Of a stretch of 64,000 nucleotides of DNA, positions 17,207 through 19,468 are shown piece after piece. The stretch's first letter is position 1. Each line of letters starts with the position of its first letter. The notes under the pieces are model-generated. The model was given only the letters and a program-made list of their open reading frames with translations. It had not been told where the DNA came from and did not search any database. Source of the DNA: an uncultured Pseudomonadales bacterium (lineage in GTDB: Bacteria; Pseudomonadota; Gammaproteobacteria; Pseudomonadales; JANQJO01); contig CAZECE010000042.1 in assembly GCA_964510525.1 (NCBI GenBank), positions 73,272-137,271 on the forward strand, given 5' to 3'. The position numbers and the translations under genes were made by a program.

Positions 17207-19468
17207 ATGACTCCTTCTCCCCAGCGTTCTTTAACTTCCCGTGCGAACCTACCTTGTTCACTGACTTCACCTGACTCAGAACAAGCCAAACAACAGCACT
17301 TCCCTAATAGCAGGTTCTGTAATGGAGATGCTCATGATGAAATGAGGCACCCTTCTTTAAATGAAGGTTTTATTTCTTCAGCAACTGAATCAGTCAGTCA
17401 ATTATTCGAGGATTTAAATAGAGAATCGGTTAGAAGCAGTTTGATGCAAGAAATAGACTTTATTGCAAAAAAAAAACCAAAAGAGCGAGAGCAGTTTTTT
17501 TTAGACTGCCTTGATTTAGTCGAATGGTTTAGAAAGTTAGAGGGTGTTAAAAAAAATCAAATTACCGATAAAAAAATTCAGTGGGCACTCAATCATGGAT
17601 TAGGGCTTGGATTGTTACAGCAGAGTCCTTTTGAGGTGCAGGATATAGATCAAAAATTTGTAGATTCTTTGCTTCAGCGCATTCCTAATTTGGCATTTTG
17701 CCCTTTGATAAATGATGGGCGTTGTTTATTAGAGAAGCATATTGATCACTTGAACTCAAGTACGATTCAAATACTGAAGGAAGTTGCAACTGAAATTATT
17801 TATGAAGGGCCTGATAGAGCGCTTTTGAATCAAACGCTGAGGATGTTTAATAAATTTAAATTGGTAATTGATTTATCAAAAGTAATAGTAAATCGGCAGA
17901 CATTTTTTAATCTTTATAATTTTTTATATGAACCGGTTTTGGCAATCAATATTCGGTATTTAGGTGAGCATGGGGCGACGACATGTTTTGAGCTGCTTGC
18001 ATCCAGCCTTGACTTGATGTGTCTAAAGCCTGAGTTAGATGTTTCGAAGCATAACCTAATTGAATTTGCATTTAACTCGTCACTGTCATTAGAACTGTTT
18101 GAGGAAATGTTTCGTAATGTGCCGCCAGATTTGAAAAGTGAAGTGGCTCTAAATGTGATCACTAAATGTTTAGATTCAGAAAATGATCTTCCAGTTATTC
18201 AACAAAAAAGGGAATACTTAATAAATGAGTCTTTAAAGCATGCAGGCGTTAAGATGTCTGCTGCTGATACTATGCTGGCAGAGGCTGTGTCAGTTGAAGA
18301 GTTAACGGAATTTTCATTAGCCGATGAAATTGCTCAAGCTGATAAGGCAGCGAGTGACTTAATAGAACAAGAAAGTTTGCTTTACGAAATTCGGCAAGAA
18401 TTTTTAGATAACTTTAATCAAATAATCAAGATTCCATTTATGGTTGAAAATTGGAGAGCTGTTAAGAAAGAGCTTCAAAAATTTTCTGATGGTGTGGGGT
18501 TGAATTTAAATTTAGAGGCTGTCCGTTTAGAAAAAATGCAAGGGTCTTCTAAGTCTGGCGGTAAAAAATCAAATTTGAAAAAAATTAATCGACAAGTCGC
18601 TAAAATAAAAGGCTCAGTTGAATCTTTTATTAAAAATCAGCTTAATCATTCTCATGTGGATAGCATGAATGTCTTATTTGAAGCACTTAAAAGTACGGAT
18701 CAAAAACAAAGAGCTTGGAAGCTACTTTCTGAAAAAAATGAAAAACTTTTGAGTCATAGCTCTGTTATTGACAGTGGTTCTGCTCAAGAAATTGAAGAAA
18801 AAAATATGGCTGTTTCAGGGGATGATGTTGAGGGTGATGCCATGTCTAACAGCTTTAGTGAAGAGTACATAAACCCTATTAAGCTTGATGGGGTTGTGAA
18901 GCACGATGTTATCTCTTTAGGTGAAGCAAAAATTGTGCATAAAGACTTGAAACCTGAAAATATTAGAGACTTGGTTGTTGAATTAAAGAAGTATGATTTT
19001 GATTGTTCAAACCATAATATTAAAGAAATGCGTGAATCCTTTGATAAAGCATTGATCTTTTATCAGCAACAAAATGATCTTCATCTGATGTACCGAATGT
19101 TTGAAGAAAATGGTCTGTCAAATAAATTGGTTCGTGACCTTTTAAATATGGCAACTTACATAAAGCCCTATTCAAATGAGCTGGATTTTGAATTCGATTC
19201 TGATACGAAGTCAGAATCCTTTGGCGTTGATGATAAGTTTAGGCAATATTTAAACCTATGTGGTTTTGACTCTTTAGCTTTATGGATGAAGTCAGTTGAA
19301 GATCGAAATCAAATGTATGATTTAAAATGGTTCTTAAAGCAGAACTTTCCAGAATATAACGATTCAGCGATTATATGCCTTCTTAATACGGTCGATTCAC
19401 GGCTAACCGAAGGGAATAGAAAAGATGCTAAACGCTATTTGAATCTAAAGTTTAACGTAACAAAATAA
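17207..19468 (+). CDS. hypothetical protein, 753-aa AT-rich orphan
   Basis: Long uninterrupted ORF in a visibly AT-rich segment. It has a Ser/Thr/Pro-rich N-terminus followed by Lys/Glu/Leu/Asn-rich sequence. I recognise no family. Confidence 0.6.
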   Translation: MTPSPQRSLTSRANLPCSLTSPDSEQAKQQHFPNSRFCNGDAHDEMRHPSLNEGFISSATESVSQLFEDLNRESVRSSLMQEIDFIAKKKPKEREQFFLDCLDLVEWFRKLEGVKKNQITDKKIQWALNHGLGLGLLQQSPFEVQDIDQKFVDSLLQRIPNLAFCPLINDGRCLLEKHIDHLNSSTIQILKEVATEIIYEGPDRALLNQTLRMFNKFKLVIDLSKVIVNRQTFFNLYNFLYEPVLAINIRYLGEHGATTCFELLASSLDLMCLKPELDVSKHNLIEFAFNSSLSLELFEEMFRNVPPDLKSEVALNVITKCLDSENDLPVIQQKREYLINESLKHAGVKMSAADTMLAEAVSVEELTEFSLADEIAQADKAASDLIEQESLLYEIRQEFLDNFNQIIKIPFMVENWRAVKKELQKFSDGVGLNLNLEAVRLEKMQGSSKSGGKKSNLKKINRQVAKIKGSVESFIKNQLNHSHVDSMNVLFEALKSTDQKQRAWKLLSEKNEKLLSHSSVIDSGSAQEIEEKNMAVSGDDVEGDAMSNSFSEEYINPIKLDGVVKHDVISLGEAKIVHKDLKPENIRDLVVELKKYDFDCSNHNIKEMRESFDKALIFYQQQNDLHLMYRMFEENGLSNKLVRDLLNMATYIKPYSNELDFEFDSDTKSESFGVDDKFRQYLNLCGFDSLALWMKSVEDRNQMYDLKWFLKQNFPEYNDSAIICLLNTVDSRLTEGNRKDAKRYLNLKFNVTK

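Follow-up and report, generated by a model that had tools for sequence, protein, structure and literature searches.

The closest described counterparts of the locus reported here are the xenogeneic AT-rich ORFan islets of proteobacterial chromosomes, a class typically silenced by H-NS-like proteins, and, at the protein level, the coiled-coil-rich, low-GC, lineage-restricted effectors that type III and type IV systems translocate. By the N-terminal rules for Pseudomonas syringae, type III substrates begin with a disordered, Ser-rich segment that has Pro or an aliphatic residue at positions 3-4 and no acidic residue among the first 12, and the Dot/Icm (type IVB) signal is C-terminal, with small polar residues and a block rich in Glu among the final ~30 positions. 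Ser/Thr kinases (PF00069, bacterial effector kinases included) are a further point of comparison, in which the canonical spacing between the catalytic Asp and the DFG motif is 18 residues.

Here we describe a gene (hereinafter designated the orphan) in the chromosome of an uncultured marine-biofilm proteobacterium. Overall, the orphan is an ordinary xenogeneic ORFan belonging to an undescribed two-member family.

An intact gene of foreign composition

The window, i.e. the whole 64-kb stretch of DNA analysed, contains the orphan in the following setting:

17038..17206, no strand: intergenic region separating the orphan from the divergent M48 peptidase gene; GC 0.361
17207..19468, + strand: orphan gene; ATG start, 753 codons, 753 aa, intact
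19537..20241, - strand: 234-aa ORF, N-terminal part of DUF1631 (Pfam PF07793), convergent to the orphan

The extent assigned to the ORF by a preceding sequence-only reading, 17207-19468, is exactly reproduced. At the gene's own composition, a stop is predicted about every 13 codons and the chance of encountering none over 753 codons is about 2e-27; the other five frames contain 30-108 stops. The 753 open codons, together with protein-level conservation in the relative described below (P0005), identify the orphan as a real, intact gene. Its product contains 12.4% Leu, 8.8% Ser, 8.5% Glu, 8.4% Lys, 6.9% Asn and 6.9% Asp, in agreement with the richness in Lys, Asn, Glu and Leu that had been read from the translation.

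Composition was judged against every other ORF in the window that is 150 aa or longer, 52 in all (mean GC 0.471, sd 0.026; mean GC3 0.488, sd 0.048), among which the orphan, with a GC of 0.350 (GC1 0.463, GC2 0.289, GC3 0.298), is the strongest outlier of the window (z = -4.6 for GC and -4.0 for GC3). Since GC3 is low as well, the compositional shift is not merely an effect of amino-acid content. The difference from the flanking M48 gene (GC 0.490) and CsgG-like gene (GC 0.482), previously judged by eye, is thus confirmed by measurement. The low-GC tract extends from ~17038 to 19536 and contains one gene. Residues 1-52 have a GC3 of 0.346, their higher overall GC being due to codon position 2, and therefore form part of the same compositional unit; we rejected on these values the idea that the Ser/Thr/Pro-rich N-terminus is read-through native DNA.

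The orphan is accordingly a one-gene islet in the core chromosome, located between the M48 lipoprotein-peptidase gene and the DUF1631 N-terminal fragment, and its neighbours are housekeeping genes of native composition. As in the known AT-rich ORFan islets, a single gene falls short of its surroundings by ~12 GC points overall and by ~19 at third codon positions, so that the deviation includes synonymous sites; it is almost without relatives and is set among conserved core genes. In contrast to those islets, its boundaries lack integrase, tRNA and repeats: no tRNA was found within 10 kb, and no integrase, secretion-system gene, chaperone or meaningful flanking repeat adjoins the gene.

Foreign origin is well supported by composition, and the earlier proposal of an acquired gene holds as far as composition reaches, given the GC and GC3 outlier status, the one-gene islet and a homologue in an unrelated lower-GC contig. 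A native, vertically inherited and fast-evolving gene, AT-rich through weak selection, AT-biased mutation or selection for AT-rich DNA, would explain the lack of insertion marks such as a mobility gene, tRNA or flanking repeat, and the lineage is poorly sampled, with even the DUF1631 fragment having no close relative, so that orphan status alone says little. We nevertheless regard this explanation as unlikely, because the GC3 is far below the range of the other 52 ORFs, poorly conserved ones included, because the GC3 of the homologue is close (0.346) in another genome of lower GC and another context, and because low GC is confined to the gene and its short adjoining spacers between native flanking genes.

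Flanking regions and variation within the population

The intergenic region 17038..17206 presumably holds the promoters of both the M48 gene and the orphan. A consensus scan of this region detected no sigma-70-like site on the + strand and one weak sigma-70-like site on the - strand (17067-17040). Neither this region nor the spacer at 19469-19536 contains a small ORF. On the other side, the 234-aa ORF matches PF07793 with E = 1.9e-9 and 37 bits (cutoff 33.7) over profile positions 12-205 of 741, and its composition is native (GC3 0.468). Its last 26 codons are likewise native (GC3 0.519), a value on which we rejected the idea that the ORF runs into inserted AT-rich DNA, and no DUF1631 remnants were found on the minus strand beneath the orphan. 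The partial DUF1631 gene is compatible with a deletion at insertion; its tail is native, and short natural forms are possible.

The contigs that carry the flanking genes all derive from the same near-clonal population (at least 99.8% identical), and all of them carry the orphan. When the cold-shock, M48 and DUF1631 neighbours were looked up as exact proteins, the same population alone was returned, and the 80 genome loci reached via the CsgG-like gene share none of the other flanking genes. Within this population, one polymorphism affects the gene:

19419..19440, + strand: 22-bp indel polymorphism with GAA microhomology, segregating in the population

The deletion allele is frameshifted and its protein stops at 739 aa (...EGNRI), with loss of the conserved DA..YL, giving two alleles of the orphan protein (P0001, 739 aa; P0003, 753 aa). 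One sample contains contigs that stop at 19421 (L096) and at 19439 (L002).

The segregating deletion may mean that the gene is dispensable or decaying. Taken further, the orphan would be non-functional, a transferred gene heading for loss with its ORF still open, and both the loss of 15 conserved C-terminal residues in part of the population and the lack of a promoter-like site on the upstream + strand speak in that direction. We consider this improbable, since the 753 codons have stayed open against their composition, the blocks shared with P0005 keep 32-42% identity, and the deletion touches the extreme C-terminus only.

A single relative and a shared modular plan

Scanning 1.84 billion representatives exhaustively with HMMER retrieved a sole relative of the orphan (E = 1.2e-58), an unannotated 1640-aa protein (hereinafter designated P0005) from JGI metagenome 3300033182, contig Ga0369852_1066839 (locus L086). 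This contig is unrelated to the one studied here and has roughly 40% GC; the P0005 gene itself has a GC below that of the ends of its own contig and lies within about 10 kb of orphan ORFs that have no Pfam match. The orphan is the second known member of an undescribed two-member family. Alignment with P0005 divides the protein as follows:

17207..17518, + strand: residues 1-104, polar N-terminal region; disorder predicted for most of it
17519..18256, + strand: residues 105-350, conserved N-domain (BLASTP against P0005)
18320..18754, + strand: residues 372-516, conserved helical middle block (local alignment to P0005)
18755..19030, + strand: residues 517-608, variable acidic linker; ~870 unrelated residues at this place in P0005
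19031..19441, + strand: residues 609-745, conserved C-domain (BLASTP against P0005)

The N-domain aligns with P0005 residues 105-348 at 32% identity over 248 columns (BLASTP, E = 7e-31) and contains the invariant stretch IEFAFNS.LSL..FE.MF.NVP. The C-domain aligns with P0005 residues 1491-1627 at 42% identity over 137 residues (BLASTP, E = 2e-31), with the conserved motifs VR.L.NMA.YIKPYS and N.PEY.D..I.C.LN.VD..L.EGN..DA..YL in both proteins. The middle block scores 121 against P0005 residues 440-600, compared with 34.9 +/- 6.1 for shuffles (z = 14), and AlphaFold places helices at 370-407, 453-481 and 484-516, at low confidence. Residues 517-582 of the linker are coil in the same low-confidence prediction. 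Cys165 and His178 are invariant across both members and may be catalytic residues.

P0005 and the orphan share the order of modules (polar disordered N-terminus, N-domain, helical block, C-domain) and differ in length by 887 aa, most of which stems from the ~870 residues that replace the ~90-aa acidic linker of the orphan, with a further ~80 aa inserted behind the N-domain. P0005 also differs in its genome and neighbourhood. The family has a polar N-terminus predicted to be disordered and three conserved helical blocks, with a middle cassette of freely variable length. P0005 is itself uncharacterised, so that no function can be transferred from it to the orphan.

The Ser/Thr/Pro-rich character ascribed to the first ~50 residues is reflected in a content of 40% S/T/P/Q in residues 1-52, where Asp23 is the first acidic residue, and two low-confidence AlphaFold models show coil over residues 1-52 or 1-59. 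The N-terminus of P0005 is comparably S/T/P/Q-rich over about 100 aa. Homology in sequence between the two N-termini was rejected (z about 0). P0005 and several of its orphan neighbours start with S/T/N/Q-rich segments. Neither a signal peptide nor a transmembrane segment was found in the orphan product (maximum KD19 = 0.98, none above 1), which is a soluble and, as modelled, all-helical protein.

Family and structure searches

The impression that the protein belongs to no recognised family was upheld by searches of Pfam, NCBIfam, PADLOC, PHROGs and PDB, none of which gave a family match; Pfam, NCBIfam, PADLOC and PHROGs likewise yielded no match for P0005 and its neighbours. The only PADLOC alignment of the orphan covers a kinase-like string and is not significant (E = 0.12), and PHROGs returned nothing below E = 0.046. 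With the orphan and P0005 as queries, word-indexed searching across 5.8 billion clusters recovered only the queries themselves. Locus scans that used alignments of the conserved blocks, run on JGI metagenomes (twice) and on IMG/VR, gave no match, and neither did tblastn against 72,556 plasmids and 50,697 phages.

Against PDB, the N-domain profile finds nothing below E = 0.37 and the C-domain profile solely designed or helical-repeat proteins, via short low-score repeats; sequence searches with the whole orphan, residues 501-753 and P0005 give sub-threshold kinase alignments and designed helical repeats only. AlphaFold models reach a pLDDT of 38.4 from the single sequence and 39.9 from a three-row alignment, both all-helical with no sheet. 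With the better model (pLDDT 39.9), the Foldseek matches in PDB have E of 0.35 at best and TM <= 0.14 and are generic helical repeats, which we discarded; no kinase domain occurs among these matches, YpkA appearing at rank 11 through its Rac-binding domain, which is not the kinase. At a pLDDT of about 39, these fold searches are uninformative.

The same searches bear on the view that the orphan is neither effector nor scaffold, being instead defunct mobile-element cargo or a single-gene defence or toxin determinant, e.g. an anti-phage gene. An AT-rich one-gene islet would fit flexible genome, the homologue resides in an orphan-rich island, and large uncharacterised proteins are common among defence genes. 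We give this view little credit, because PADLOC and PHROGs offer nothing for the orphan beyond the values above, with PADLOC empty for P0005 and its neighbours, because plasmids, phages and IMG/VR contain no match, and because nuclease, ATPase or other enzymatic domains are absent from the protein and defence genes from its surroundings.

A kinase-like string in the variable linker

The variable linker of the orphan carries a string that resembles subdomains VIb-VII of Pkinase:

18935..19003, + strand: kinase-like string VHKDLKPENIRDLVVELKKYDFD, residues 577-599

The sequence-only reading had located this motif at 18938-19003; the motif is present, and its start lies one codon earlier than given, at 18935. 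HKDLKPEN occupies residues 578-585 and the string conforms to the catalytic-loop pattern H/Y-R-D-L-K-x-x-N. In the following YDFD, Asp597 lies 17 residues past Asp580, exactly the distance previously counted to a DF(G)-like Asp, and the Gly of DFG is replaced by Asp. YDFD is not shared by P0005, where 'INKNLD' or a gap stands at the position of HKDLKPEN.

The N-lobe reported missing upstream is indeed missing: residues 440-577 contain neither GxGxxG nor VAIK and form, as predicted, a long helix (453-516) followed by acidic coil, and no profile or PDB alignment reaches into this region. Pkinase (PF00069) has no hit at E <= 1 in the whole 753-aa protein. It scores 12.3 bits against residues 440-753, and 16.1 bits (cutoff 31.7; E = 0.0078) against an isolated 81-aa piece, where the match covers profile positions 116-148, i.e. 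32 of 263. PDB kinases align to residues 501-753 at E = 0.3-1.7. Residues 545-610 score 17 against the P0005 segment that precedes the C-domain, compared with 21.4 +/- 4.2 for shuffles (z = -1.1). Compared with Ser/Thr kinases, the orphan is alike over 32, possibly ~60, residues (alphaE, HRDLKPEN loop and DFG region), has no counterpart to the other roughly 230 positions, scores half the gathering threshold, and is predicted to be helical or coil in this region rather than alpha/beta. The string is an isolated, unconserved resemblance inside a variable cassette, with no kinase domain around it.

That the orphan is an atypical or degenerate eukaryotic-like kinase or pseudokinase, with HKDLKPEN as catalytic loop and YDFD as the DFG equivalent, is close to refuted: IVHKDLKPENI agrees almost perfectly with the subdomain VIb consensus and an Asp-Phe follows 17 residues past the catalytic-type Asp, the pattern [HY][RK]D[LIVM]KP[EQSAG]N is expected only 3.5e-6 times from the protein's composition, kinases (PhK, IRE1 and MEK1) are the sole PDB sequences that align to residues 501-753, from alphaE to DFG, and Pkinase is the best Pfam family for the isolated piece, yet the motif was chosen post hoc, its match is lost with the whole protein, APE and DxWxxG are lacking along with the Gly-loop and the VAIK Lys, the 130 residues upstream are conserved long helix and acidic coil, and the segment is missing from the sole homologue, whereas in kinases no part is better conserved than the catalytic loop. 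The atypical kinase fold suggested earlier thus finds no support in the profile scores, the PDB E-values or the comparison with P0005, nor in the low-confidence all-helical AlphaFold models.

Comparison with secreted effectors

Several features recall type III and type IV effectors: foreign composition and orphan status, the lack of a Sec signal or transmembrane segment, a disordered Ser/Thr/Pro-rich N-terminus without early acidic residues, and a modular helical body in a flexible genome position. In the first 50 residues, 16% are Ser, Pro is at position 3, and Asp and Glu are absent before residue 23, in keeping, by reading, with the type III rules, which are heuristics and not specific. The orphan differs from such effectors in showing no homology to any effector family, NCBIfam with its many Dot/Icm effector models included. 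The DNA read comprises the 64-kb window and, past its high-coordinate end, ~6 kb of the dcw cluster; it contains no secretion-system gene, and no chaperone or effector domain was found in the orphan and the same DNA, so that apparatus and chaperone are missing from the DNA read. The C-terminus of the orphan differs as well: LLNTVDSRLTEGNRKDAKRYLNLKFNVTK, its final 29 residues, is net basic and contains no Glu block of the Dot/Icm type. The host, moreover, seems to be free-living, a lifestyle suggested by the context genes nqr, dcw, PEP-CTERM and phasin in the DNA read. The secreted-effector reading is speculation.

Discussion

The account that we favour, by a modest margin over doubt, combines a real gene of foreign composition, belonging to a two-member family with a variable cassette, with a product that serves as a non-enzymatic binding scaffold; export is not part of this estimate. 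The orphan protein, which has no recognisable catalytic domain, would most likely act by binding. Its two conserved end modules would engage partners and the helical or variable spacer would set their separation, making the protein a scaffold or tether. Because structure prediction failed (pLDDT 38-40), 'non-enzymatic' here reflects the absence of hits and not a fold.

As to where such a scaffold would work, the most likely single reading, held tentatively, is that the protein is exported as an effector-type accessory protein for a biofilm or host-contact niche, with the acid-free Ser/Thr/Pro-rich N-terminus serving as the export signal. The same binding job inside the cell is nearly as likely. 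A bolder proposal is a long shot: a new class of exported tethers or effectors in marine surface-associated bacteria would have the orphan and P0005 as its first two members. In these proteins, conserved N- and C-terminal binding domains would flank a cassette site that accepts unrelated sequence, and the cassette found here would hold a piece captured from a eukaryotic-type kinase (alphaE, catalytic loop and DFG) that serves as a molecular mimic, e.g. of the surface at which a kinase docks, with no enzymatic role.

The textbook catalytic-loop string found outside any kinase domain is a warning against motif-based annotation. With three conserved blocks now defined, the two-member family can be recognised again as sampling grows, and the locus of M48 gene, orphan and truncated-looking DUF1631 gene is a marked site at which a single sister genome would give the acquisition a date and an orientation. 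Should the product prove to be exported, free-living biofilm bacteria, in which such proteins are little studied, would gain an effector or tether family.

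A maintained AT-rich gene in ordinary core chromosome

The orphan ORF and its nearest neighbours lie as follows.

16285-17037 (-): M48 peptidase gene, GC 0.490
17207-19468 (+): orphan, ATG start, 753 aa, GC 0.350
19537-20241 (-): 234-aa ORF convergent to the orphan, GC3 0.468, native composition
20458-21123: CsgG-like gene, GC 0.482

The orphan is a maintained coding sequence, since its base composition predicts a stop roughly every 13 codons, which puts the probability of 753 codons staying open at about 2e-27, and its other five frames hold 30-108 stops each. The AT-richness noticed by eye in the sequence-only reading is borne out against both the M48 and CsgG-like genes. 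Measured against the other 52 of the 53 window ORFs of at least 150 aa (mean GC 0.471 ± 0.026, GC3 0.488 ± 0.048), the orphan (GC1 0.463, GC2 0.289, GC3 0.298) is the strongest outlier, with z = -4.6 for GC and -4.0 for GC3. The equally large shift at third codon positions means that the Lys/Asn/Glu/Leu-rich amino-acid content does not explain the low GC. The low-GC tract is limited to about 17038-19536.

The window is ordinary proteobacterial core chromosome, carrying recQ, a hybrid response-regulator/histidine kinase, the M48 peptidase, a CsgG/DUF4810/GNA1162 lipoprotein triad, cspA-like, ychF, pth, rplY, prs, ispE, rnd, recR, dnaX, SRP RNA, a PEP-CTERM protein, phasin, gap, nqrA-F/apbE, ppa, RNase P RNA and the dcw cluster. 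Near the orphan there is neither an integrase nor a tRNA, and no meaningful flanking repeat or secretion-system gene. Contigs with the flanking genes all come from marine-biofilm metagenomes of BioProject PRJNA438384 (PMC6355793), match the window at 99.8% identity or more and carry the orphan wherever they reach the locus; the 80 genome loci recovered via the CsgG-like neighbour share no other flank with the window.

Within this nearly clonal population, a 22-bp indel at 19419-19440 with GAA microhomology differs between assemblies and is almost the sole difference in 14 kb. In the deletion allele the orphan ends at 739 aa and loses a conserved DA..YL. The assembly of sample ERZ27263990 breaks exactly at the indel, contig L096 stopping at 19421 and L002 at 19439, a pattern that coexistence of the two alleles in that sample would produce. 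The indel is a hint that the extreme C-terminus, or the gene, is weakly constrained.

Other loci in the window

Four further loci were recorded.

62179-63915 (-; also loci L102 and L103): 578-aa gene resembling isocitrate/isopropylmalate dehydrogenase, on the opposite strand between ftsW and murG in the dcw cluster
47978-49237: AAA_14/DUF4143 ATPase, the window's second-lowest-GC ORF (GC 0.405, GC3 0.388), adjoining ppa, tRNA-Arg (49970-50046) and a HepT-like/NTase_sub_bind gene (50474-50998)
20458-22206: CsgG-like/DUF4810/GNA1162-like lipoprotein triad
8821-12060 (-): single 1079-aa ORF with MFS transporter, acyltransferase and AMP-binding (acyl-ligase) domains

The dcw operon is normally contiguous, and a dehydrogenase-like interruption is unusual. 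The region 47978-50998 is possibly a small tRNA-associated accessory islet. Relatives of the triad number more than 540, at 60-73% identity, and come from Gamma-, Alpha- and Deltaproteobacteria, Nitrospirota, Binatia and Verrucomicrobia; their flanking genes are not conserved, and the triad behaves as a self-contained, widely exchanged module. The 1079-aa ORF is a lysophospholipid transporter/Aas-type fusion in one polypeptide. Two further ORFs, at 22877-23344 (+; 155 aa) and 7818-8951 (+; 377 aa), have no Pfam or PADLOC match and, unlike the orphan, are near-native in composition.

An undescribed two-member family

The orphan has no significant match in Pfam, NCBIfam, PADLOC, PHROGs or PDB sequences, in agreement with the earlier failure to recognise a family. 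A word-indexed search of 5.8 billion protein clusters returned only the orphan itself from other assemblies, in 739-aa and 753-aa forms. An exhaustive HMMER scan of 1.84 billion representatives found exactly one relative, the unannotated 1640-aa metagenomic protein P0005 (E = 1.2e-58). No further members emerged with P0005 as query, from conserved-block patterns against JGI metagenomes and IMG/VR, or from tblastn against plasmids and phages. The two proteins are a so far undescribed family with three defined conserved blocks.

Conserved blocks shared by the orphan and P0005
Block 1: orphan 105-350, P0005 105-348; 32% identity, E = 7e-31
Block 2: orphan 372-516, P0005 440-600; score 121 versus shuffles 35 ± 6, z = 14
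Block 3: orphan 609-745, P0005 1491-1627; 42% identity, E = 2e-31

Between blocks 2 and 3, P0005 carries about 870 unrelated residues where the orphan has a 92-residue linker, acidic and mostly coil. These alignments show a family that is, by sequence, modular, its ends conserved and its middle variable. Both proteins start with about 50-100 polar S/T/P/Q-rich residues, a likeness that is compositional only (sequence z ~0); the Ser/Thr/Pro-rich start described earlier recurs as 40% S/T/P/Q in residues 1-52. Both proteins lack a transmembrane segment and a signal peptide (maximum 19-residue hydropathy 0.98 for the orphan and 1.12 for P0005), and the predicted product is soluble.

AlphaFold gave all-helical models at mean pLDDT 38.4 (one sequence) and 39.9 (orphan plus two P0005 segments), in which residues 1-52/59 and 517-582 are coil. 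Foldseek against PDB found nothing below E = 0.35 (TM at most 0.14; generic helical-repeat proteins only), and the predicted models justify no fold-based inference.

The kinase-like string and rival functions

In the absence of enzymatic signatures, and given two terminal modules joined by a spacer of variable length, the orphan most plausibly acts by binding, as a scaffold or tether. Its conserved terminal modules would bind partners at both ends, across a spacer whose length varies about ten-fold in the family.

Whether such a protein would act outside or inside the cell divides the two foremost readings. Export as an effector-type protein is the likeliest single reading, though a tentative one: the N-terminus, where Ser makes up 16% of the first 50 residues, Pro stands at position 3 and the first acidic residue comes at position 23, fits classic type III N-terminal heuristics, and similar starts are seen in P0005 and several orphan ORFs beside it. 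No secretion apparatus, chaperone or effector homology is found in the window and about 6 kb beyond its high-coordinate end, and the genomic context looks free-living. An intracellular scaffold is about as tentative, ranking slightly below export. Defence, toxin or mobile-element cargo is unlikely, the low-GC island setting being set beside the null PADLOC, plasmid and phage searches. A native fast-evolving gene is similarly improbable given the composition, and a decaying gene, to which the indel might point, has an equally low probability beside the intact reading frame.

A kinase or pseudokinase is very improbable. The HRDLKPEN-like motif reported earlier is present, as VHKDLKPENIRDLVVELKKYDFD at residues 577-599 (nt 18935-19003), but starts one codon upstream of the position first assigned. 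Its IVHKDLKPENI comes close to the subdomain VIb consensus, an Asp-Phe lies 17 residues beyond the catalytic-type Asp, and 3.5e-6 occurrences of the catalytic-loop pattern are expected from the orphan's composition. Against PDB, residues 501-753 align only with kinases (phosphorylase kinase, IRE1, MEK1), over alphaE, catalytic loop and DFG, at E 0.3-1.7. A kinase domain was nevertheless rejected because every domain-membership test was negative. The whole protein has no Pkinase match, and an excised 81-residue piece covers 32 of 263 profile positions at 16.1 bits (gathering score 31.7), which does not support the proposed atypical kinase fold. GxGxxG, VAIK, APE and DxWxxG are all absent, the first two as already noticed; in the predicted models the 130 residues at the expected N-lobe position form a long helix conserved with P0005, then acidic coil. 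The string sits in the family's variable cassette and shows no likeness to P0005 (z = -1.1); in a kinase family, the catalytic loop would be conserved if anything were. The likelier explanation is a chance string picked out post hoc, the other a captured or decayed fragment of a kinase.

Origin of the gene

Of the 741 positions in the DUF1631 profile (PF07793), the 234-aa neighbour covers only 12-205, at the N-terminal end. DUF1631 is reported to be linked to c-di-GMP-related phenotypes in Xanthomonas (bioRxiv 10.1101/2022.02.07.479439). A search of 5.8 billion clusters yielded no close relative of the neighbour, and no trace of the unmatched part turned up under the orphan or nearby. The gene may have been truncated by a deletion at the orphan's arrival; the partial match and missing remnant fit such a deletion, but the native composition of the tail speaks against it.

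P0005 resembles the orphan in composition (GC 0.388, GC3 0.346). Its contig, of about 40% GC, belongs to another metagenome, and P0005 occupies the middle of the following stretch.

L086 3686-13746 (JGI 3300033182, Ga0369852_1066839): about 10 kb of orphan ORFs

None of its ORFs (50 to 1640 aa) has a Pfam match, nor do the five larger ones tested (229-1640 aa) match NCBIfam or PADLOC. Its GC is 0.31-0.43 versus 0.42-0.47 at the contig ends, several ORFs near P0005 have S/T/N/Q-rich N-termini, and the whole stretch resembles an orphan-gene island.

The orphan and P0005 share a similarly low GC in settings that are unrelated, both lie in orphan or island DNA, and the orphan falls short of its host by 12 GC points (19 at GC3); together these give good support to a foreign origin. 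Of the earlier "recently acquired gene", acquisition thus stands as probable and a recent date as plausible. Such low GC and island settings, with the gap to the host, are as expected for a gene moving through flexible genomes, and as a xenogeneic ORFan the orphan is of an ordinary kind.
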